Numbered from the stretch's first letter, positions 2,885-16,241 are shown. The stretch: DNA of 38,561 nucleotides from a virus (IMGVR_UViG_2703718787_000016); one strand, 5' to 3'. A program made the numbers and translations. Notes: generated from the letters alone by a model not told the origin.

Positions 2885-3208
2885 ATGAAGCAACAACGAA
2901 ATGCACGCATCAATAACAACACCGAACGCCACGTTGCACGCCAGCACTTCCGTAAAAATAGTGCGACCGCAACCACTGAAATCCATACCACACCAGACGG
3001 TCATCCGGTAAAACAAACCGGAAAGCACACCTGGGCGATTGGCGACACTGGCATCGTTATTCACAAAAGTTTTCGTAGCCCTGTTACTGGCAGATTTAAT
3101 TTTACCCTGACTCGCGGAGATGATTACTTCGGACAGGACTTCACATTTTTTGAAGCGTTAAGAACGGTCGATCGGTTAATGACTGGTCGTAATTTTCACG
3201 CTAAATGA
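2885..3208 (+). CDS. Hypothetical early protein (107 aa)
   Basis: ORF with ATG after a GAG-rich Shine-Dalgarno-like region in the early operon; no recognisable motif. Confidence 0.5.
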   Translation: MKQQRNARINNNTERHVARQHFRKNSATATTEIHTTPDGHPVKQTGKHTWAIGDTGIVIHKSFRSPVTGRFNFTLTRGDDYFGQDFTFFEALRTVDRLMTGRNFHAK

Positions 3209-3221
3209 TACAGATGAAAAC

Positions 3222-3437
3222 ATGGAAACATACAAAATTAAAAATATTGAACACCATGACGGTTTTTTCAGCACTGAACATGTTGCTTGTGTTGTCAGGA
3301 TTTTCAATGAAGTAGATGTGATTTTGAAGCAAAACATAAAGCTTGAAATCATCGCAAAAAGCGAAGCCGACGCCATTGAAATAAAAAAAGCTATTGAACG
3401 CCAGATAATGCCGTTGACAAGTATCATTGCATTTTAA
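3222..3437 (+). CDS. Hypothetical early protein (71 aa), AT-rich
   Basis: ORF in a visibly AT-rich patch of the early operon. Confidence 0.45.
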   Translation: METYKIKNIEHHDGFFSTEHVACVVRIFNEVDVILKQNIKLEIIAKSEADAIEIKKAIERQIMPLTSIIAF

Positions 3438-3455
3438 GCAACAGGAAAAATAACC

Positions 3456-3695
3456 ATGACCAGAAATTACAAAGAAATCGTCAATCAGATCATTAAGGCT
3501 TACAGCCACCGCATCGCAAAATCACCCGAGTTCATACGCATAATGGAGACGCGCTCATTAATGCAAGGACTGAACGGGTTGGCACTGGCCGCATTGGCAG
3601 CTAACGATATTGATGCCACTATCGAAATAAACAACCTGTTATTAGACATTGAAAAAGGCGGAAACATAGAACCCTACAATCTGGAGGCCGCATGA
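3456..3695 (+). CDS. Hypothetical early protein (79 aa)
   Basis: ORF preceded by a GGAAAA-rich leader; ATGA overlap with the next small ORF suggests translational coupling. Confidence 0.5.
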   Translation: MTRNYKEIVNQIIKAYSHRIAKSPEFIRIMETRSLMQGLNGLALAALAANDIDATIEINNLLLDIEKGGNIEPYNLEAA

Positions 3696-4262: not shown

Positions 4263-4843
4263 TGAACCATCTCATGATTGACACCGAAACACTGGGTAAC
4301 GGACCGGACGCAGCCATATTCGCGATTGGGGCGGTGTTTTTCGACCCGTTCACCGGAAAGCTGGGCAAGCAGTTTGAGAAATTCATCGACCCGGTGGATT
4401 CAGAACGCAACGGCGGAACCGTCAATGCAGCCACCGCTGTATGGTGGGCCGGACAATCCGTGGAAGCCAGAGCCTGCCTGCGCAACGCAGATGGAACAGA
4501 GCTGGCAGCAGTGACCGAATTTCTGGCGTTCATTTCACGCAATATGCATGACGAAAGCCCGGGCAATTCACTGAACATATGGTGTAAGGGCGCATCCTTC
4601 GATTTCCCGATCCTGAAATCCGCCATAACACGCACAGCCGGAGAAAAAAGCATCCCCTGGTGCTACTGGAACGAGCGCTGTATGCGCCCGCTTATCGCCA
4701 TGGCTGAATCAACTGGATGGAAAATGCCAGGCAGATCAGGCAAAGAGACCATTGCTCACACCGCGCTGGGCGACGCCGTTTACCAGGCAAAGGTCGTGTC
4801 AGAAATCTGGCAGCGCTTCACAACACCATTCCTGAACATATGA
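4262..4843 (+). CDS. 3'-5' exonuclease, DEDDh (DnaQ-like) family
   Basis: Exo motifs MIDTETLG (Asp-x-Glu), FDFPIL and HTALGDAVYQA (His...Asp). Confidence 0.8.
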   Translation: MNHLMIDTETLGNGPDAAIFAIGAVFFDPFTGKLGKQFEKFIDPVDSERNGGTVNAATAVWWAGQSVEARACLRNADGTELAAVTEFLAFISRNMHDESPGNSLNIWCKGASFDFPILKSAITRTAGEKSIPWCYWNERCMRPLIAMAESTGWKMPGRSGKETIAHTALGDAVYQAKVVSEIWQRFTTPFLNI

Positions 4844-5076
4844 GGTGAAGCCATGGTCGCCATCCTGAATGTGTGTTGCTGCCCCCCCCTGAACGTGGAA
4901 AGAAAAGCCCGCGCATCGCTGCGTTTATTCCGCGACGGCGTGCGGAATTTTTCACGCATAAAACCCCACGACTACCTGGTAATAAGAATCGGTTTTCGCT
5001 GGCGATTGCTGAGCAAAAACAACGGGGCGTCATGGGATTTATTAACGCACGAAACCTATAACAAAGAGGCCGCGTT

Positions 5077-6021
5077 ATGAGCAAAGAACTGTTATCCGGC
5101 ACGCCGCTTAAATGGGTGGGCGGAAAAAGTCGCATCATGAACACACTGAAGGCGCATCTGCCAGAAGCAGACTGCCTGGTTGAGCCGTTTGTGGGTGGCG
5201 CATCGGTATTCATGAACACCAGTTACAAGCGTTACATCCTGGGTGATTCCAATGGTGCGCTGATTAATTTCTACCGGCAAGCCAGGGACAACACCGACAG
5301 CCTGATCGACGAGGCGAAAACCCTGTTCCTGAACCACAACAACAGGGGTGACTATCTCATCATTCGCGAAACCTTTAACGCAGAGAATCATGCCTTCCTG
5401 AACAGCAGAACGGGAATAAGCGACCGCCGTGAACTGCGACTGGCCGCCATGTTTTTGTACCTGAACCGACACAGCTTTAACGGTTTGTTCCGCGTGAACG
5501 GAAAAGGCGATTTTAACGTGCCTTTCGGCTGCTACCGCAAGCCCTACTTCCCTGAGCGGGAAATCCGCGCATTTGCAGACAAGGCAAACAGCACCCGAAC
5601 GCTGCTTATCCACGCAGATTTTAAGGATACGCTGAACTCTGCCAGTCACCTGTTCGGCATGGGCAACACGCTTTGCGTGTACTGTGATCCCCCTTACCTG
5701 CGATTCAGTGGCCGGGACAATTTCACCGCCTACGGAAAACCATTCGATGAAGACGAGCACGTTCGTCTGAGGGCAGCGCTTGACCGCCTTTCACAGGAAA
5801 CGGGCGGCATGACCAGCATCACCATATCCAATTCCGACACACCGGAAACCAGACGCATTTATCAGGGTTACCGGATGAACGCCATCCAGGCACCACGAAG
5901 CGTTGGCGCAAGAACCCGGGAATCAGCACCGGAGGTTATCGCCACCCTGAGATGCATCACATCCGCCTTATCAACGGTTCGCACTTCTGCGCCACGAACA
6001 TGGAAGAAGTACGCGTGCTGA
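5077..6021 (+). CDS. dam: DNA adenine (N6) methyltransferase, Dam family
   Basis: N-terminal KWVGGK and FVGGASVF (SAM-binding motif I) and the catalytic DPPY motif (VYCDPPYLR). Confidence 0.9.
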   Translation: MSKELLSGTPLKWVGGKSRIMNTLKAHLPEADCLVEPFVGGASVFMNTSYKRYILGDSNGALINFYRQARDNTDSLIDEAKTLFLNHNNRGDYLIIRETFNAENHAFLNSRTGISDRRELRLAAMFLYLNRHSFNGLFRVNGKGDFNVPFGCYRKPYFPEREIRAFADKANSTRTLLIHADFKDTLNSASHLFGMGNTLCVYCDPPYLRFSGRDNFTAYGKPFDEDEHVRLRAALDRLSQETGGMTSITISNSDTPETRRIYQGYRMNAIQAPRSVGARTRESAPEVIATLRCITSALSTVRTSAPRTWKKYAC

Positions 6022-6049
6022 CAGCAACACGCAATACGGGAGGTAAAGC

Positions 6050-6400
6050 ATGGCAGTGATTTATATCGCCGGTCCCATGACCGGATGCAAAGACCACAAC
6101 AGGACGGCATTTTGCGTGGAGGACCTGAAACTTCGGTGCGCCGGAAACATCGTTCTTAATCCTGCCGTACTGCCTGACGGATTAAGCCAGCAGCAGTACA
6201 TGAGCATTTGTATTCCGATGCTCATGTGTGCCGATGCCATTTACTTACTGGAAGGCTGGGTGGATTCAGCTGGCGCGCGGGCGGAGTACGTAATGGCACT
6301 CAAACTGAACATGCCAGTGTCATTCCCGGAAAACCGGGCAGCCGGAGAAACCATCGCGCAGCTGCTTCACAAATCAAAAGCCGCACAGGCGACTGAGTAA
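6050..6400 (+). CDS. DUF4406-like (nucleoside 2-deoxyribosyltransferase-like) protein
   Basis: N-terminal MAVIYIAGPMTG motif typical of this family; immediately downstream of dam. Confidence 0.6.
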   Translation: MAVIYIAGPMTGCKDHNRTAFCVEDLKLRCAGNIVLNPAVLPDGLSQQQYMSICIPMLMCADAIYLLEGWVDSAGARAEYVMALKLNMPVSFPENRAAGETIAQLLHKSKAAQATE

Positions 6401-6838
6401 CCGACCGGAGATCGAAACATGATTGCGCGAAGAGCTGCCAACCGCCTCACAGGCTTTATTCCAGGCAAGGTTGATCATGCACTCCATCACGGGGCTGTCA
6501 CTTTCCTCAACAAAGGAGAGGCGCGCAATCATGCATTCCGGAGTGAGCACGTGGCGCTGGCTAATCAGTCTTTGATAGCTAAGCGCCTGCCATTCAGCCT
6601 TTTCAGCTCTGATAGAAAGAGAGGCAGCCATGACCTGCCACACCAGAAAGAGCACCACACTGGCGAAAACAAACGTTGCGCTGTCGCAAAAAATGAATGC
6701 GGCAACAATCGCAAGGAAAGCGCTAATCCTCAGAACCAAGGAAGCGCGACGGTGGAGAAGGCTTGTCATGTGTTCAAGCCAGTAGCTGTACCACAGGTCA
6801 AAAAGAATTTCGTAATCAGAAGGGAGCTTATCACTCAT
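6374..6838 (-). CDS. Predicted membrane protein encoded antisense to the early operon (about 154 aa)
   Basis: ATG at 6838 followed by two long hydrophobic segments (ISAFLAIVAAFIFC, FVFASVVLFLVWQVMAASL). The plus strand across this stretch has no convincing gene. Confidence 0.4.
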   Translation of the reverse strand: MSDKLPSDYEILFDLWYSYWLEHMTSLLHRRASLVLRISAFLAIVAAFIFCDSATFVFASVVLFLVWQVMAASLSIRAEKAEWQALSYQRLISQRHVLTPECMIARLSFVEESDSPVMECMINLAWNKACEAVGSSSRNHVSISGRLLSRLCGF

Positions 6839-7221
6839 CAGAAACACCCCGCGTATGCAGACAATCACCAGTTGCCAGGTGATATTAATTCGCCACATTC
6901 TAACCACATCAGCACGCAACACAAAAACCGCTTGCCAGCGCTCGTCGTGTCGGGTTACATTTCCGCTGCACCTCATAAAACGGGTGCCGGGATTTCCACC
7001 CTGCTGACTAGCAAAGCGCACTACCGCGCCAGCGGTTTTTTTGTGCGTACTGTATTGCCACGTTTTTTTCGCATCAGAATTATGGCGGGGCGTACGGGGC
7101 CGACTTCGGTCGGGCCGGGTTCTTTGCTAGCCGGTTGTGGAAACCCTGTACGTCTCGCCACCCCGAGTTTTCCACCTCCGGTTGGTGAGTTTTCAAAACT
7201 TACTAGCAAAGAGGCCACACC

Positions 7222-7443
7222 ATGGCAAACCGCAAGCAACAGCGCGCCCGCGCTGAGCGTCTTCACATCCGCAGCGAAATCAACCGCAGACTTTTCCGCG
7301 CAACACGCGTCGCGCAAATCATGCATATCAACATGCTGCATGAGCGCACGCACGCACTATCAAACCGTTACTGCGCTGCCGTCTTCAGCTATCTGGCCGA
7401 AGACCTGGCAGAACTGCAAAGCCTCATCAACCAGCACCGATAA
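7222..7443 (+). CDS. Hypothetical basic protein (73 aa)
   Basis: ATG preceded by an AGAGG Shine-Dalgarno motif; Arg-rich N-terminus. Confidence 0.4.
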   Translation: MANRKQQRARAERLHIRSEINRRLFRATRVAQIMHINMLHERTHALSNRYCAAVFSYLAEDLAELQSLINQHR

Positions 7444-7511
7444 ACCACATCCGGAAGCTATCCCACACCTGCACGCGGGAGGCTTCCGCACATCTGTTAC
7501 CGGAGGTTCTC

Positions 7512-7928
7512 ATGAAGAGCGTTAAGGGACTTTCAGATATTCAGGACTTCTTTAACTGGATGTGGGCGGTGGATCCCCTGCTGGCTTCCCGCCTGAACAA
7601 CTGGCACGACTATTACCGCCGCGCCTGTAAACAGGCCGCCCGCAGCATCACCACATACGGGGATTTCTCCTTCACCGTTGACGGTCGTTACCGCGTGGAC
7701 GTGAAAGGTGACGGTGATGGCTTTGGTTTATTTCACATCAACGGCACCGACAGTACCGCCATCAGCTGGTCATCGTCAGAGATGGCACTGGTTCTGGAAA
7801 TGACAACCCACAGCGTGGCCGTGAAAGGCATATACACCGCAGAAGACTTTATCGGTGAATACCAGCGCCTTCTCGTGCTGTACCGCGCGGCGTTTCAGGA
7901 GGTCACTGGCGGGGAGTACGACGCATGA
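7512..7928 (+). CDS. Hypothetical protein upstream of the replication gene (138 aa)
   Basis: GGAGG Shine-Dalgarno motif before the ATG; stop overlaps the gpA start (ATGA). Confidence 0.55.
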   Translation: MKSVKGLSDIQDFFNWMWAVDPLLASRLNNWHDYYRRACKQAARSITTYGDFSFTVDGRYRVDVKGDGDGFGLFHINGTDSTAISWSSSEMALVLEMTTHSVAVKGIYTAEDFIGEYQRLLVLYRAAFQEVTGGEYDA

Positions 7929-10438
7929 GTGACCGCAATGCACAGCTGGCGTACCCGTGGAACGCACCGCTACCGGTTATCGATCCTGAAACGTTCGGCA
8001 GAGCACAACCAACCGCATTACGCCAGGCCATTCAGAGCTACATCAACGAGGACATTCGCATTGATGCCAGACTGGATGAAGAAACCGTCTCCTTCCTGAC
8101 AAACACAGACGAAGGCAAGCGAATTAATTCGCATCTTCACCACGACGAAGAGCGTCGGGTCAGACTGGAAAAACTGGCGAAGCACAAACGCGAGAATCCG
8201 CCCACGGTGGTATCGGAAGCCATGGCAGAACTTCGCGCCCTGCCCTCGTTTCTTGGCAACGTGCTCATTCGTGATCTGGCGCGTTTAAACCGCAAACAAC
8301 AAAGCGCCCGCAATGAAGGCGTGAAAAACAACAACACTCACGTGGCCGATAACTTCGTTCGCCGTGGACTGCGCACACGCCTGAAACGCATCGAACAGGT
8401 GAATGAATGCTTCGCCACGACGGCATTCAAAGCCACCGCAGCGCGTCATCGCCTTGATGAATTACTCATGCTGCCACAACTCAACCGTGATCAAATTCAG
8501 CGCCTTGCCACACTAACGGCGGCGGCATTTTCCACCGAACTGGAACGCATATGTGATGAAGTTACTGAGCGGACAGGAAAAGGCGACGATAACCTGTTTA
8601 CCTGGTTGCTGACTTACCAGCAGCTGGCGCGCATGGCAATAAAACTGGGCGTGAACCCACCATACTGGCCGTCACTCGAGATCAGACGTGACCGCCGCAC
8701 GGCACCAGACCCTGAACGGGTACCGGGCGCGGTAATGCGTATCACCTGCGCCACCTGGTGGAACAACCAGCTGCGCCACCTCGCTGATCTCTGGCGGGAG
8801 GAATTACTGCGTGCCGCCGGAAGAGTATCGCGCAAGGCATCCCCCTACATCAGCCATGAGTCACTCCAGGAATTCCGGGAGAAACGCCAGCGCACCCGTG
8901 ATTTTCTCAAAAGCTGGGACATTGAAAACGAAGACGGTGAACGCCTGAGCCTGGAGGACGTGTACTGGTCAGGGCTGGGGAATCCGCGCAACCGCCGCAA
9001 CGAGATGATGGCCTGCGTCAGAGGGATGGAACAGGTCGCCGAATCGCGTGGTGACTCCGCGTTCTTCGTGACAGTGACCTGCCCTTCCCGCTTTCACAGC
9101 GTAAACGAGGACGGCAGCCTGAACCAGAAATACAACGGTGCCACCGTGCGCGATGCCAGTGATTATCTGGTTTACGACGTCTTTGCAGCTGCAAGAAAAA
9201 AACTCAACAAAGAAGGCCTGAGCTGGTACGGGGTGCGCACCGTTGAGCCACACCATGACGGCACACCGCACTGGCACATGCTGGTATTCACCGCCCCGGA
9301 CAATGAAGAACGCATCATTGAAATCATGCGTGACGCAGCAATCAAATCAGATCGCGCAGAACTGGGGAATGATATTTCTCCGCGCTTCAAGTGCGAAAAA
9401 ATCGACCCGGCAAAAGGCACACCGGCAAGCTACATCGCAACCTATATTGGCAAGAACCTGGACGCCAGCACCTTTCACGACAATGACCCGAAAACCGGCA
9501 AACCTTACGCCGATAAAGAATCGGGAAAAACCATGGCGGAAACCGTGGAAAACGCCATTGCCTGGGCGAGTCTCCACCGCATCCGGCAGTTCCAGTTCTT
9601 CGGTATCCCGCCCCGCCAGGTATGGCGTGAACTCCGCCGCCTTGCCGGACAAATGGAGCGTAACCCCGCATCACCGAAGCGCCTGGACCATGACGACATT
9701 GACGCCATTCTGGCCGCCGCTGACGTGGGGTGTTTTGCCACCTACATCAACCGTCAGGGCGGCGTGCTCATTCCACGCAACCTGTACCTGATCCGCACCG
9801 CATACGAAACCGCAGATGAGGCCAACGACTACGGCGAATTCCCGCAGCGCATCTACGGAATTTGTGCCCCGTCGCTCGGCGAGCGCTACACCATCTGCAC
9901 CCATCCGGACGAGTGGAAACTGGTCAGAAAAGAAGCGAAAGCCGACAACAGCACGGACGAGGATTTTGACGTTGGGGGCGGCTTCGCCGCACCTTGGACT
10001 CGTGGCAATAACTGTCCCCATGATGAAAAAACAGACACCGGAGAGGGTAAAACCCCACCACCGGAAACCAGGAAAGAACAAAAACTGACCATCCCGGAAG
10101 GTGATTTGAGCGAATGGTTAAGGTCACTGACCCCCACAGAGAGAAAACAACTCACCAGGCAGCTGAAAGATGCGCCATCTGACACAAAAACCGTGAAAAC
10201 CGGCGGCCCCACCACGCCCGATGACGTCATACATGTGCGTACAGCATTGCCGCTGACTGACGTCACCACCACCGTAATCAAGTCGGCACTGAGCACGACG
10301 GGCGAGGAGCTACACAGTGGCGCAGCACTTTCCGTACACAGAGGTGCACGCGTTCGCCTGCCTGACGGGCGGATTGTGCACTGGGATGAAAAATCACGAA
10401 GCCTGGTGGCAGCAGATCAACCGGAGGTTAACCCATGA
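7925..10438 (+). CDS. A: Replication initiation endonuclease, P2 gpA-like (rolling-circle HUH initiator)
   Basis: 837 aa with an HUH-type metal motif (HHDGTPHWHMLVF) and paired active-site tyrosines (YIATYIGKNL); position and size match P2 gene A. Confidence 0.92.
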   Translation: MSDRNAQLAYPWNAPLPVIDPETFGRAQPTALRQAIQSYINEDIRIDARLDEETVSFLTNTDEGKRINSHLHHDEERRVRLEKLAKHKRENPPTVVSEAMAELRALPSFLGNVLIRDLARLNRKQQSARNEGVKNNNTHVADNFVRRGLRTRLKRIEQVNECFATTAFKATAARHRLDELLMLPQLNRDQIQRLATLTAAAFSTELERICDEVTERTGKGDDNLFTWLLTYQQLARMAIKLGVNPPYWPSLEIRRDRRTAPDPERVPGAVMRITCATWWNNQLRHLADLWREELLRAAGRVSRKASPYISHESLQEFREKRQRTRDFLKSWDIENEDGERLSLEDVYWSGLGNPRNRRNEMMACVRGMEQVAESRGDSAFFVTVTCPSRFHSVNEDGSLNQKYNGATVRDASDYLVYDVFAAARKKLNKEGLSWYGVRTVEPHHDGTPHWHMLVFTAPDNEERIIEIMRDAAIKSDRAELGNDISPRFKCEKIDPAKGTPASYIATYIGKNLDASTFHDNDPKTGKPYADKESGKTMAETVENAIAWASLHRIRQFQFFGIPPRQVWRELRRLAGQMERNPASPKRLDHDDIDAILAAADVGCFATYINRQGGVLIPRNLYLIRTAYETADEANDYGEFPQRIYGICAPSLGERYTICTHPDEWKLVRKEAKADNSTDEDFDVGGGFAAPWTRGNNCPHDEKTDTGEGKTPPPETRKEQKLTIPEGDLSEWLRSLTPTERKQLTRQLKDAPSDTKTVKTGGPTTPDDVIHVRTALPLTDVTTTVIKSALSTTGEELHSGAALSVHRGARVRLPDGRIVHWDEKSRSLVAADQPEVNP

Positions 10439-11425: not shown

Positions 11426-11743
11426 ATGCCAACACAGGTTGCAACAGAGGGACGACTGGCAGCAGACCCGAACACAAGGAGAACAACCAAAGGAACCAAC
11501 GTCACAACGGCACAACTGGCGGTATCACTACCCTGCCATGGCGCAGAACAGCCAACCACAATGTGGCTTTACCTTATTGCATTCGGGAAGCAGCACGAAG
11601 AACTGGCAAAACACAGAAAAGGCGATCTGATTCTGGTGCACGGAAACTTGCAGGTAAACAGGTATCAGGACAAGTACGGGCAACAGAAAGAGGGCTGGCA
11701 GTTGCTGGCGCAAAGCATTATCAGCTCAAGAACCGGGCGATGA
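11426..11743 (+). CDS. SSB-like OB-fold protein lacking a C-terminal tail (105 aa)
   Basis: Aligns by eye to the bacterial SSB OB-fold core (EGRLAADP...T..G..V; WLYLIAFGKQHEELAKHRKGDLILVHGNL...Y.D.YGQ), with no Gly/Pro-rich linker or acidic tail. Confidence 0.6.
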   Translation: MPTQVATEGRLAADPNTRRTTKGTNVTTAQLAVSLPCHGAEQPTTMWLYLIAFGKQHEELAKHRKGDLILVHGNLQVNRYQDKYGQQKEGWQLLAQSIISSRTGR

Positions 11744-11753
11744 CTTCACGCAT

Positions 11754-11794
11754 GTTACCCTCAGCAGCGAGGGTAACACAGGATTTCTTTTTTC
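11754..11794 (+). terminator. Rho-independent terminator ending the early operon
   Basis: Perfect 9-bp stem GTTACCCTC/GAGGGTAAC with 6-nt loop, followed by a T-run (tttcttttttc). Confidence 0.5.
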
Positions 11795-12329
11795 AGTCAA
11801 ACCGAAATCGGCCGCTTGTCGCGTATGCATAGGTGACCACCGCACCCAGCGCATTCACACGCTTCTTCACATAAATCACATTACCATCCTGATAGTCACC
11901 GTATGGGTAGCAAATAAATATTGTTTTTTGCAAATCAGGATCATCAACAAATGCCCCTGAACAACTTTTTGAGCTACCGCGACTGTACTCATAGGGAGCG
12001 GAATAGAATGAATCTTCACCCGGAAGAAAATATATCAGCGTAACCAGGAGGGTAAACAGAATCATCCAGGTAAGAAGGCACATACCCGAAAAAAACTTAA
12101 GATACGATGTAACCCCGGTAAATTTAGACCGATCAACCAGGTTCTTTTTCAACAGGCACAGTGAGACAAAAACCGAAAGCACCACAGACACTGAAACAAG
12201 GCAGTTTGTCGTGAACGAATAAAGGTAGGTAATTCTGTAAACATCGTTTCGCCACCAAATAAAAAGAAAAATCCCCCCCAAAACAGAAAGCGTGACAAAA
12301 GTTAAATAAGGATATGAGTAATTTTTCAT
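11793..12329 (-). CDS. Accessory membrane protein of unknown function (178 aa; three hydrophobic segments and a Cys/Tyr-rich C-terminal domain)
   Basis: ATG at 12329; hydrophobic segments (LTFVTLSVLGGIFLFIWW, LVSVSVVLSVFVSLCLL, MCLLTWMILFTLLVTLIYFL). AT-rich codon usage unlike the neighbouring phage genes; sits between the early-operon terminator and the candidate cos. Confidence 0.55.
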   Translation of the reverse strand: MKNYSYPYLTFVTLSVLGGIFLFIWWRNDVYRITYLYSFTTNCLVSVSVVLSVFVSLCLLKKNLVDRSKFTGVTSYLKFFSGMCLLTWMILFTLLVTLIYFLPGEDSFYSAPYEYSRGSSKSCSGAFVDDPDLQKTIFICYPYGDYQDGNVIYVKKRVNALGAVVTYAYATSGRFRFD

Positions 12330-12691
12330 AGTTCTCACCCGGCAGTCTCCCACTGATTCAGACAGATGAATATCATCACCACCTGCCACAAAAAATCGCA
12401 AGATCAAAACTGCACAAAAGCGCACGAAATTGCACAATTTTTCTAATGTACTTTTTCCCCATTCCGCCCGGTAACGGCGCTGGCTGAAGCCACTTTGCAC
12501 GGTGCACGAAAAACAAGGCAATTGCAGCGCGCAGGCGACGAGGGAAGGGCGCCCGAATTGAGGGGTGGAAGGCAGGTTGCTTTATTTGGGGTCGTATTGC
12601 GCGTGATACGCGCGCAGTGAAGCCAGTTTTGAAAAACCACATCAAAACATGGTCAGGGAAACAGGCCGTCAGAATGCGTCTGATTGCGTCT

Positions 12692-12723
12692 GGCGAGGTC
12701 GGAGATCGGGAGGGAAACGGATG
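12692..12723. other. Candidate cos (cohesive-end) region
   Basis: GGCGAGGTCGGAGATCGGGAGGGAAACGG loosely resembles the P2/186 cos sequence as I recall it (GGCGAGGCGGGGAAAGCA) and lies where cos is expected, between the replication-distal accessory genes and Q. Weak, memory-based match. Confidence 0.25.
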
Positions 12724-12874
12724 TGACGAACGGGATAAAAAAGAGAGACAAAAATCACTGAAATCATAAAGTTAATAGAATTTAAAGTATCAGTCATTCA
12801 CGGGTGAAAACTTGCGCACAATATGAGGTGAGCGCAGAATACAGGCTGGCATAAACAGACCAAAGGAGAGCGAC

Positions 12875-13378
12875 ATGAGCCATTTTCGCGATTTGTACCT
12901 GGCAAACAAAAAGAGCCGGGACGCGAGGCGGGAGGTTACAGGGATTCTGCGCAATCAGGCTGAAAAGCTGGTTGCTTTTTATGAGCAGTGGCTGGAATTG
13001 CCTTCAGAGACATGGGAAGACAAAGACGGCGAGCATCATCGTTACGTTGATACGGGGTTTCCGTGCAGAAACGATCGGGACTTCAGGCCATTTCCGGTAA
13101 ATATGATTGCAACCGACACAGATAACATATTCCGGATGGCTGTAAGAACATGGGTTGACTCACACGATGAAGGAGAGTCGGTAAACATAGTCCTGGCAAT
13201 GGAATTACATTCCGTCGGAAAAGACGGTGTATCTCTTCGGGTTCGCGTGGAAGATGATACCTCCATTCGCGTGGTCATCAACGGAGACGGTGACAGGGAA
13301 TGGCTGCCGATAGTAAACAGCATGAAGATACATATTATCAGCAAGCTGCAAAGAAGAACGCCATCCGCATTCCGTTAA
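12875..13378 (+). CDS. Accessory soluble acidic protein of unknown function (167 aa)
   Basis: Strong AAGGAG Shine-Dalgarno motif before the ATG at 12875; followed by its own terminator hairpin; no motif recognised. Confidence 0.6.
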   Translation: MSHFRDLYLANKKSRDARREVTGILRNQAEKLVAFYEQWLELPSETWEDKDGEHHRYVDTGFPCRNDRDFRPFPVNMIATDTDNIFRMAVRTWVDSHDEGESVNIVLAMELHSVGKDGVSLRVRVEDDTSIRVVINGDGDREWLPIVNSMKIHIISKLQRRTPSAFR

Positions 13379-13392
13379 GAGAGCTGGAGAGT

Positions 13393-13417
13393 CGGGGCAT
13401 AAATTTTTTATGCCCCG
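13393..13417. terminator. Bidirectional terminator hairpin between the accessory ORF and portal gene Q
   Basis: CGGGGCATAAA-TTT-TTTATGCCCCG perfect inverted repeat with an A/T-rich centre, between convergent genes. Confidence 0.6.
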
Positions 13418-13443
13418 GCGAAGCAGCAGACAAGCGAAGCGCG

Positions 13444-14487
13444 TCAGCTGGCGTTATCCAGAAGCAGGGCATAGGGGTTAAAGCGCATCACCTCAACGCC
13501 AAGCCATTCATTGACATGCTTCATGGCCTCCATGACAGGTTGCAACTCGTTGATGAAAAACACTCTCGCCGCTTTTTCAACGTCACCAAACGCCGCATTC
13601 CCGTCAGGCATTGCCCCCATCAGTTGAGGTGGTACACGATGGGCAGCAAGGATATCGTCGCGGGCGCTCCCCTTGATGTTCAGGAATTCATCCTTTGCGG
13701 TTATCTGCTGGAACGGCAGTATTTGCACACCATCCTTGCCACCACCCGGCGCATGTAGAAACAGGTTTTTAAACGCCCCGCGACCACGGGAATCCGTAAG
13801 CGTTTTTTTAATGGCCTCGACACTTTCCGCATTCGCCTGAGATGTGCCTACATAGATAATACACCCGGCATGAGAGCCGTTATCGTAGTAGAGCTTGCGG
13901 AATGTATCCGCTGAGTTTGACAGGCTGACAGACAGCAACCCGCCGATATATTCCGGCATCCCGTAGATCTCCTGATTAATATCAGGATTAAGCACGTGGC
14001 ACACAGTCCCTTTCCTGAAACTGAACTCCGTACCGTCGTCGTTGAGATACCAGTAGGTATCCAGGTCACTTCCCCTGCGTGTATATTTTGCCAGTGCCGG
14101 GCGAAGCAGGAGTGGTTCCCCCAGCCTGTTACGCCGCACTTCAAGATAGGCATTACCAAACACAAACCAGTCGAGCGCAAACGCTGAAAACGCCTGGCGG
14201 GACAGCAGAGGGTGAGGAACAAAGCACCCGTTCAGGGCGTTGCGCTTGAAGTACAAAGCCGACTGATGCCAGGACGCACGACGGGATGCACGGGCGATAG
14301 CGTTCCAGTCCATGGGGGTATCAAAGTAGCGCCCGTTATCTGCACATGACATGTTATCCAGGAGATCCATGCGGCTGACTTCATAGGGCCCATCAAAGGT
14401 GAATGCGCTGAGTGCAGGCGTTGATTTCAGTGCATCGTGTAGCGAATCCTGCCCCCTCTTTCCGGTGTATTTTTTGCGTTTACTCAT
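13444..14487 (-). CDS. Q: Portal protein, P2 gpQ-like
   Basis: 347 aa, matching P2 Q in size and in position next to the terminase ATPase on the same strand. Confidence 0.9.
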   Translation of the reverse strand: MSKRKKYTGKRGQDSLHDALKSTPALSAFTFDGPYEVSRMDLLDNMSCADNGRYFDTPMDWNAIARASRRASWHQSALYFKRNALNGCFVPHPLLSRQAFSAFALDWFVFGNAYLEVRRNRLGEPLLLRPALAKYTRRGSDLDTYWYLNDDGTEFSFRKGTVCHVLNPDINQEIYGMPEYIGGLLSVSLSNSADTFRKLYYDNGSHAGCIIYVGTSQANAESVEAIKKTLTDSRGRGAFKNLFLHAPGGGKDGVQILPFQQITAKDEFLNIKGSARDDILAAHRVPPQLMGAMPDGNAAFGDVEKAARVFFINELQPVMEAMKHVNEWLGVEVMRFNPYALLLDNAS

Positions 14488-14492
14488 TGTGT

Positions 14493-16241
14493 TCAGAACT
14501 CCATTGCAAAGCCGCGATTATCCTCACGCTCCGCACCAATTGGCTCATTGATAACAGCAAGCATGGTTGCCCAGGCGAGGTCACCATGGCTGACGCCACG
14601 GGAGCGGTCGGTGTCGTAGGTGATATAGCCGCCGGGTGTCTGTATTTTTCGCACCGATGCGAATGCCTGGATCAGGTCACGTTCACTGCGGTCATACTCC
14701 CAGCGTCCGGCACGCACCACCTGAAGCATTTTCATGACCAGTGCCCGCTTGGAGGCGATATTGAAGTTGTACGGTACGGCCATCGGGAAAAACTTTTTCA
14801 CAATCTGATAAACCCCCTCCCCGTTCCCGCCGGTCACATCAATGCCGATATGTTTCACGTTATATTTTTGGGTGTATTCCTCAATCAGTGCGGCCTGCTG
14901 TTCAAACTCCATCCCCTGAACCCTGACAGTTTCCACCGTGCGAAAACGCCCACCGGCAACAAGGGGCGGCACGCACACCGACAGTGCCCCGCAGTCCCCC
15001 TTCCCGCTGCTGCCGTTGGCGTCATACCCAAGCCAGACCTCCCTCACCCCCATAGGGCGGGCAGCAAAAGGTTTCCAGTCAGGCCATTCGTCATAGCCGT
15101 CAACACCGCAGCCGGTGAGCGCACTCAGGCTGAAGGCTGCCTCACCATCACGGACAAATTCGCACATGTACAGATTACGAAATTCACTTTCTGTATTTTC
15201 GCTGCGAATAACACCAATATTGGTGTACCGCCATCCGTTAGCGACAGCATCCTCAATAGTGACAATCTGCCGCCATGTTTCGTCAGGAAAGAGCACGCCC
15301 CCCTTCAGATGCGCATGTGAAACATCAAACTCACTGCGTTTTGAGCGTGGCTGTTCGCTGTTCCAGCGGTCCCCCGTCCAGAACTGATACGCCTCATGTG
15401 TTTCACCTGACGGTGTTGAAAAGTAGGTTCGCGTAAGCCCTTCCAGTGTCGCCATTGCCCCAGCAACCTTCCTGAGTTCCACAAAGTTACTGACCCAAAA
15501 AAATTCATCAAATTTAAGGTGTCCGGTATACGACTGAGCGGTTGCTGCCGATGTGCCAAGGAAGTGAAGCTCTGCACCGTTAGACAAAACAATCTTGTCA
15601 CCCCCTTTCAGTTCGACATCAACTTCCAGCGCCGCCTGCTGAATAAAGTGTTTGAACTGATACGCCTGGCGACGGGATGCGGACAAAAATATCTGGTTGC
15701 GCTGGTACCCGGCGGAGACATCATCACGCAGTGCATCAAGGAGTGCTTCGCGCGCAAAATACCAGGTCGCACCAATCTGACGCGACTTCAGGATCATGCG
15801 GTTGCGGTGATGGCGGTTGTCGTACCATTCGCGCTGATGCCAGGCCAGTGACGGCAGGATTTTTTCCCTGAGTGCGACAATCTGCTCTTCGGTGAAGTGA
15901 TTTTTCAGTTTGCGCCTGCGGGGCTTCTTACCGGAAACAGCCTGTTCTCCCTGACCGTCATTCAGTTTTTTCAGCTGGCGCGTCAGCAGGTCAATTTCCT
16001 TAAAGTCACCGCCGCTTTTATCCGGTTTGGCGGTGAGCTGTATCAGGCGTGCATCAATGGACTGGGTGACCCGCTGGATCGGGGGAGTGGCATCCCACTC
16101 ATCGCGTTTTTTCCACGAATAAATCGTGTTCTGGTTTATTCCCATCAGCTGAGCGATATCCGCCGGGGTATACCCCTGCCAGTAAAGCTGTTTCGCCCGC
16201 ATACGAATAAAGACATCCTGGATCATTGCACCCCCTGACAT
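14493..16241 (-). CDS. P: Terminase large (ATPase) subunit, P2 gpP-like
   Basis: Large ORF divergent from the scaffold gene, in the P2 Q-P arrangement. Start taken as ATG 16241; an alternative ATG at 16226 has a better GGGGGTG Shine-Dalgarno motif. Confidence 0.92.
   Translation of the reverse strand: MSGGAMIQDVFIRMRAKQLYWQGYTPADIAQLMGINQNTIYSWKKRDEWDATPPIQRVTQSIDARLIQLTAKPDKSGGDFKEIDLLTRQLKKLNDGQGEQAVSGKKPRRRKLKNHFTEEQIVALREKILPSLAWHQREWYDNRHHRNRMILKSRQIGATWYFAREALLDALRDDVSAGYQRNQIFLSASRRQAYQFKHFIQQAALEVDVELKGGDKIVLSNGAELHFLGTSAATAQSYTGHLKFDEFFWVSNFVELRKVAGAMATLEGLTRTYFSTPSGETHEAYQFWTGDRWNSEQPRSKRSEFDVSHAHLKGGVLFPDETWRQIVTIEDAVANGWRYTNIGVIRSENTESEFRNLYMCEFVRDGEAAFSLSALTGCGVDGYDEWPDWKPFAARPMGVREVWLGYDANGSSGKGDCGALSVCVPPLVAGGRFRTVETVRVQGMEFEQQAALIEEYTQKYNVKHIGIDVTGGNGEGVYQIVKKFFPMAVPYNFNIASKRALVMKMLQVVRAGRWEYDRSERDLIQAFASVRKIQTPGGYITYDTDRSRGVSHGDLAWATMLAVINEPIGAEREDNRGFAMEF

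Follow-up and report, generated by a model that had tools for sequence, protein, structure and literature searches.

The window analysed here, a stretch of 38,561 nucleotides of viral DNA (IMGVR_UViG_2703718787_000016), belongs to a P88/P2-family prophage of Escherichia coli and carries two hypothetical genes, here named gene A and gene B, on opposite sides of its cos region. In all probability the two genes are independent hotspot morons and not a cassette. The complete reading, namely two separate single-gene accessory modules (morons) in two variable slots flanking cos, inside the gpA-gpQ hotspot and with the functions proposed below, is held with slightly less than even confidence. Both open reading frames (ORFs) of the original prediction are present and annotated in RefSeq, where they are labelled hypothetical proteins in the matching locus of E. 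coli STEC2018-607 (100% identity over 11700-13500), and the gene order bears out their placement between the end of the early operon and the portal gene Q. The features of the region, in window coordinates, are:

11426-11743: SSB-like (single-stranded DNA-binding) gene, end of the early operon
11753..11793, plus strand: hairpin (11753-11778) and T-rich tract closing the early operon and bordering, on its 3' side, the stop codon of gene A on the opposite strand
11793..12329, minus strand: gene A, 178 amino acids (aa), WP_000801013.1, PHROG_1416
12330..12405, minus strand: A-specific upstream leader, forming the end of the A module (boundary 12405/12406 by pairwise BLAST)
12406..12702: conserved cos core, common to A-only and B-only relatives
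12703..13368, plus strand: B module, a presence/absence block of approximately 666 bp by pairwise BLAST
12875..13378, plus strand: gene B, 167 aa, WP_032330900.1, PHROG_5091
13391..13419: hairpin between the convergent genes B and Q, at the position equivalent to P2 tQ
13444-14487, minus strand: portal gene Q

Pairwise BLAST of related loci placed the end of the A module at 12405 and the B block at 12703-13368, the latter comprising approximately 170 bp of upstream sequence, the Shine-Dalgarno sequence and nearly all of gene B. The A-only prophage L004 has nothing between cos and Q, with an unrelated 105 nt instead of the B block. The B-only prophages L005 and L024 possess a TumE/DUF6516 and regulator pair in the place of gene A, and prophage L006 carries gene A together with a three-gene cluster in the place of gene B. 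Genes A and B are discrete insertions, present in some close relatives and absent in others, as morons are.

The spacer between genes A and B measures 545 bp and was described earlier as AT-rich, but its GC content is 48.8%. The cos core contains TGCAC repeats at 12401-12434 and 12503-12526, and two cos-like motifs were found in the spacer: the 19-mer GGCGACGAGGGAAGGGCGC on the plus strand (12544-12562), which matches P2 cos at 13 of 19 positions, and the 21-mer GGCGGAATGGGGAAAAAGTAC on the minus strand (12448-12468). Because the cos core lies between the A and B modules, the packaged linear genome has gene A at one end and gene B at the other.

Co-occurrence was determined in 5,426 complete E. 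coli genomes, among which gene A is present in 22 and gene B in 11. The two genes are contiguous in only six genomes, all of which share at least 98.9% identity with the query across the 1.8-kb stretch and therefore form one lineage. Gene A occurs without gene B in 16 of its 22 genomes, and gene B without gene A in five of its 11. Both families were found together in none of the 81 IMG/VR loci, nor in any of the individually fetched contexts of diverged homologues. The divergent pair of the original prediction thus stands as geometry and not as co-inheritance, either in the genomes or in the IMG/VR loci. Its two-gene module does not hold, since the boundaries are separate, the genes are mostly carried singly, and diverged homologues never occur together; the comparison across related prophages, in which the adjacent genes amount to one lineage, likewise shows no cassette. 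As the divergent pair is not a unit, cloning should handle genes A and B separately.

The alternative cargo of the sibling prophages deserves description in its own right. In L005 (3186-3934) and L024 (4150-4898) the slot corresponding to old/tin contains the TumE (DUF6516) gene and an HVO_A0114-like regulator, a pair that looks toxin-antitoxin-like and for which PADLOC gives merely a marginal CasR-like match. In L006 (NZ_CP145707.1) two copies of the cos core, at 4709-4817 and 7635-7950, are 99% and 82% identical to window positions 12410-12735, and flank an unannotated cluster of three genes (263, 114, and 458 aa) that has no PADLOC match. These duplicate cores suggest that cargo may be exchanged by recombination inside the cos region. 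PADLOC detected nothing in the alternative cargo of the sibling phages, and consequently we make no claim of known systems in these particular slots among the nearest relatives.

The interval between gpA and gpQ next to cos is a P2-like hotspot of anti-phage systems, as was shown experimentally (PMC9122126, Rousset et al. 2022) and confirmed at larger scale (PMC13586616, Moura de Sousa et al. 2026), in agreement with the variable cargo site of P2-like phages named in the original prediction. Genes A and B lie in this location, between the replication gene A and portal gene Q and beside cos, and the slots of close relatives hold nothing, the TumE/DUF6516 pair, or the three-gene cluster, as hotspot cargo would. 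WP_000801013 and WP_032330900 both appear as 'hypothetical' in the supplementary table of hotspot loci, and neither gene A nor gene B is among the systems cloned and tested (PMC9122126). A literature search for the accession WP_000801013, the PHROG identifiers or mEp332 found no functional report.

Similarity searches placed neither protein in a characterised family. Pfam, NCBIfam, and PADLOC gave no match for gene A or gene B (PADLOC-DB v2: no family at E <= 1), in line with the earlier remark that neither contains a known defence motif. The profile hidden Markov model searches that had been suggested as a check matched only PHROG_1416 for gene A (7.6e-50, over the C-terminal 90 residues) and PHROG_5091 for gene B (2e-40), both without an assigned function. 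Profiles of the A and B families against PDB sequences gave nothing below E 0.7, and Pfam gave nothing on any member of the B alignment.

Gene A encodes a protein with three hydrophobic segments (approximately residues 6-27, 36-65, and 77-104), 17 Tyr, 5 Cys, and an isoelectric point (pI) of 8.9. The AlphaFold2 (AF2) model consists of three helices and a five-strand C-terminal domain, and the three hydrophobic segments of the earlier description are confirmed. The loop between the second and third transmembrane (TM) segments contains five positive charges, which by the positive-inside rule would place this loop in the cytoplasm and the C-terminal domain in the periplasm. Gene A is predicted to be a 3-TM inner-membrane protein with a cytoplasmic N-terminus and a C-terminal beta domain facing the periplasm. 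This domain comprises approximately residues 104-170, and C123 and C140, which are invariant among homologues, probably form a disulfide within it. Conservation peaks in TM3 and the C-terminal domain, at approximately 66% identity versus approximately 40% in the N-terminal part. The ratio of nonsynonymous to synonymous substitutions (dN/dS) within the A family is 0.145, with the portal gene as a yardstick at 0.057. The GC content of gene A is 41.7%, versus 53.6% for the window. Upstream of gene A, an alignment of P2-like A loci revealed a conserved, TGnTAAAT-like extended -10 candidate, which we infer may serve as the gene A promoter. The Ogr-type TGT-N12-ACA late-promoter motif is absent upstream of both gene A and gene B.

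The A family is limited to Escherichia, Shigella, and Salmonella. In the protein collection, the exact gene A sequence is found on approximately 1,000 or more E. coli contigs, on which the gene is carried at 99-100% identity. Among 79 IMG/VR loci with A-family members, 14 belong to P2-like gpA-gpQ hotspots and 64 to lambdoid phages. The homologues in P2-like hotspots occur in Salmonella and E. coli, and those in lambdoid phages, which include 434, 2B8, and mEp332, occupy the xis-exo gap in 47 of 47 loci and are in every case antisense to these two genes and to int. A conserved partner gene was not found across the P2-like and lambdoid contexts. The 56-aa ORF preceding the 434 homologue was considered as a partner and rejected, as it is absent from the window and not conserved in P2-like loci.

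With a single membrane gene kept apart from lytic transcription in two unrelated types of phages, the profile is that of an envelope function expressed in the lysogen. Gene A would be transcribed against the early operon from sequence beside cos, and the protein, made in the lysogen, would act at the envelope. We tentatively propose an envelope-level exclusion protein, an assignment that is plausible while still short of probable. Its most likely activity would be superinfection exclusion, blocking DNA entry like P22 SieA, T4 Imm or HK97 gp15. Because the periplasmic domain is the best conserved part, its partner is probably a component of the host or envelope that is itself conserved, and not a phage protein under fast evolution.

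Gene B possesses the AAGGAG Shine-Dalgarno sequence reported earlier, at 12863-12868, 6 nt before the ATG. The protein had been described as acidic and soluble; it is predicted to be soluble, and its acidity is merely marginal (pI 6.07, with 28 D+E versus 25 K+R). Similarly, the AT-rich character attributed to both genes applies to gene A, and gene B, with a GC content of 48.8%, is just slightly GC-poor relative to the window. The AF2 model of gene B (mean predicted local distance difference test score, pLDDT, 81; predicted template modelling score, pTM, 0.79) shows a long N-terminal helix, an antiparallel sheet, and a C-terminal helix, forming a soluble alpha/beta-sandwich. The dN/dS of gene B versus its 77%-identical relative P0045 is 0.16, and by these ratios both ORFs behave as genuine protein-coding genes.

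An exhaustive HMMER search delimited a small B family of proteins of 160-180 aa in enterobacterial phages. Matches to long cadherin, immunoglobulin (Ig), and beta-propeller repeat proteins were discarded as compositional or repeat artefacts, consisting of short multi-stretch hits on beta-strand repeats. The invariant residues of the family contain no recognisable catalytic set. B homologues were found in four variable gaps of temperate phages: between cos and Q in P2-likes, between the Q antiterminator and holin in Klebsiella lambdoids, between lysis genes and terminase, and in a tail-gene gap. Since homologues are also found far from cos (Q-holin and tail-gene gaps), a packaging-accessory role for gene B was rejected. 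No conserved partner was found for gene B; the neighbours vary by context and have no informative domains.

In three Klebsiella lambdoid backbones (L007, L008, and L009), the B homologue (8001-8510) is accompanied by the same divergent 111-aa gene (7318-7653, minus strand), which has a weak mono-CXXC match in Pfam and is absent from the E. coli window. The homologue and this gene could form a local two-gene unit in those phages.

With its alpha/beta-sandwich and no catalytic motif, gene B would be a cytoplasmic protein that acts by binding another protein. It might mediate Tin-type exclusion by poisoning a phage protein, or it might inhibit a host defence; either specific reading is doubtful. 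Gene A is the stronger lead of the two, as its distribution is broad and phage 434 carries a homologue, and gene B is rarer, with a role that is more open.

Three points weigh against the combined reading of two morons with these functions. Only approximately one third of the cloned candidate hotspot loci were active (PMC9122126). A consensus scan detected no sigma-70 promoter upstream of gene A or gene B. In lambdoid phages the B homologues are co-directional with late genes, which fits a lytic-cycle role as well as a role in the lysogen.

This last arrangement, in which the neighbours are late or lysis genes, leads to an alternative for gene B (possibly also for gene A), that it serves the lytic cycle of the phage itself or counter-defence, for example as a host-defence inhibitor, without protecting the lysogen. 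In its small size, predicted solubility, lack of an enzymatic motif and protein-binding type of fold, gene B has the typical profile of an anti-defence protein. However, gene B converges on Q in P2-likes and has no Ogr-type late promoter motif there, it shows no similarity to any known inhibitor, and P2-like phages seldom carry recognisable anti-defence genes (28 of 1,511; PMC13586616). We consider this alternative unlikely.

For gene A, an improbable alternative to blocking DNA entry is a membrane effector that is toxic or causes abortive infection (Abi), or a protein conferring immunity to a contact-dependent toxin or bacteriocin that acts on the membrane or in the periplasm. Immunity proteins for pore-forming colicins are inner-membrane proteins with three to four TM segments and a size similar to that of gene A, and the immunity reading draws on this likeness, but no colicin-immunity or other Pfam match was found. 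Small multi-TM proteins are also common Abi effectors in hotspot systems, with TM effectors mentioned in PMC9122126. Against both an effector and an immunity protein, gene A is always stand-alone and has no conserved sensor partner. Its best-conserved part is the folded, predicted periplasmic domain and not the membrane helices, and its stable carriage on the many contigs described above argues against strong toxicity.

It is similarly improbable that gene A, gene B or both have no part in conflict between phages and are instead carried along neutrally or contribute to host fitness, in the manner of Bor and Lom, envelope proteins of lysogenic conversion. On the panel used, two thirds of the hotspot loci that had been cloned were inactive (PMC9122126), and the carrier strains of genes A and B are human gut and Shiga toxin-producing E. 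coli (STEC) isolates, both of which would suit such a role. Against this, purifying selection (dN/dS approximately 0.15) and the fact that unrelated temperate phages have captured the genes repeatedly and independently, in different variable slots, argue for a selected, phage-borne function.

Finally, that genes A and B form one two-gene anti-phage system, with a membrane effector and a cytoplasmic sensor divergently transcribed across cos, is very hard to credit: the window and six complete genomes have them as divergent neighbours, more than the approximately 0.3 co-occurrences expected at random (26 A places and 13 B places in approximately 1,286 related loci), but these six are the single near-identical lineage, either gene is found without the other in the proportions given above, diverged homologues never meet in the 81 IMG/VR loci, and the cos core between their separate boundaries sends them to opposite ends of the virion genome.

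Returning to two separate morons with a role in phage conflict, part of this picture is already known, namely the hotspot and both proteins as listed hypotheticals, and the lead is a reasonable one that would not surprise a specialist. A stronger form, in which gene A founds a new envelope-exclusion family shared by P2-like and lambdoid phages and gene B independently a new family of small binders, is rather unlikely. The periplasmic disulfide domain of gene A would then block a host component needed for phage genome entry, the gene B family would either poison a protein of an invading phage, as Tin does, or neutralise a host defence, and a single prophage would carry, in the slots flanking cos, two conflict genes with new mechanisms. 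Several new anti-phage systems have already come from the cos-proximal hotspot of P2-like phages, and orphan single-gene cargo still yields new mechanisms. Gene A offers a good experimental handle, as it is carried on many contigs, was captured by two unrelated types of temperate phages, and has a homologue in phage 434. If it blocks genome entry, one more mechanism would join the few cases of superinfection exclusion that are understood.

Both hairpins of the region are strong. The hairpin at 11753-11778 has a folding energy of -16 kcal/mol (z -4.0) on the plus strand and -17.6 kcal/mol on the minus strand and is followed by a T-run, which supports the early-operon terminator of the original prediction. 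The hairpin at 13391-13419 (-28.9 kcal/mol, z -7.3) had been taken as gene B's own terminator, but it lacks a U-tract. Since it is kept in the B-less relatives L004 and P88_4B11 and sits at the position of P2 tQ, it is the Q-side hairpin of the backbone and not the terminator of gene B. No Rfam family was detected within 11600-13600.

The nearest sequenced phages of the window are the P88-like Xuanwuviruses (Peduoviridae). The window and the STEC2018-607 prophage share 99.88% identity over 27.5 kb, with one gap and 33 mismatches. According to RefSeq, the gene order in the matching locus is integrase, an early operon with the replication endonuclease gpA, a MarR-like gene, and the SSB-like gene, followed by genes A and B, portal gene Q, terminase, scaffold, P2-family capsid, and tail genes. 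The large terminase ORF (14493-16226, minus strand) is intact in the window, with 577 codons from the conserved ATG, and its counterpart in STEC2018-607 is flagged as frameshifted by RefSeq (1,733 nt).

Several features elsewhere in the window were also observed. The GC content falls to 38% near the immunity region (3001-3500), and the early operon (region 4800-6400) contains a ParE-like toxin gene, a Dam methylase, and a DUF4406 gene, as annotated by RefSeq in the matching locus. Rfam identified the Hfq-binding small RNA isrK at 6968-7042 on the plus strand (58.9 bits), followed by the C4 antisense RNA at 7078-7165 (80.3 bits). The isrK and C4 RNA pair (6968-7165, plus strand) overlaps an antisense hypothetical ORF at 6374-7021 on the minus strand, and its order is the arrangement of P1/P7-type c4 immunity RNAs, here in the early region of a P2-family prophage. 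Between the lysis and tail genes, a gene of approximately 2 kb (21319-23385, plus strand) has DUF6645 as its sole annotation and is followed by a DUF1378 gene; this position is a further P2-like accessory slot, and no PADLOC match was found for it.

Among known systems, the old and tin genes of P2 are the closest in position. Both are found at the right end of P2, on the minus strand and opposite in direction to gene A/rep, with mRNA start sites approximately 150 bp from cosR. Gene A resembles them in its slot, after the early operon and immediately left of cos, and in its strand, its orientation, and an upstream region that abuts cos, like the promoter of the old-tin operon, so that the old/tin accessory position assigned to both genes in the original prediction is correct for gene A. 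Gene B is located across cos from gene A; the P2 interval from cosL to Q is 187 bp with no gene, and because P2 has nothing there, gene B is not at the old/tin position and instead occupies a second slot left of cos. The window genes share no sequence or domain similarity with old and tin. P2 Old is an ATPase-TOPRIM nuclease and Tin a soluble protein of 253 aa, whereas gene A is a membrane protein of 178 aa. Pfam and PADLOC matched neither OLD-family ATPase nor TOPRIM domains in genes A and B, both of which are far too short for them, and gene B was rejected as a homologue of P2 Tin (E 1.7).

P22 SieA is a stand-alone prophage gene for an inner-membrane protein of 162-164 aa with three predicted TM segments, and has its own promoter opposing its neighbours (PMC10883804). 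Gene A shares this architecture, as a small, predicted 3-TM inner-membrane protein encoded by a stand-alone prophage gene. The conserved FxRYPxEAxxFNK motif of SieA is cytoplasmic, whereas the conserved part of gene A is a Cys-containing beta domain that is predicted to be periplasmic. Homology of gene A to SieA (types A-C) was rejected, as BLASTP gave E 0.56, hhalign a probability of 0.4%, and the C-terminal FxRYPxEAxxFNK motif is absent. Gene A may therefore work like SieA, but we do not assign it to the SieA family.

The third comparison is with the morons of lambdoid phages, which lie in the xis-exo, Q-lysis, lysis-terminase, and tail-gene gaps. A moron typically has its own promoter and terminator; here the hairpin downstream of gene B belongs to the backbone, and the promoter candidate is the extended -10-like element upstream of gene A. 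Similar to these morons, genes A and B show presence/absence polymorphism with discrete boundaries, gene A has an atypical GC content, and homologues of both genes occupy such gaps.

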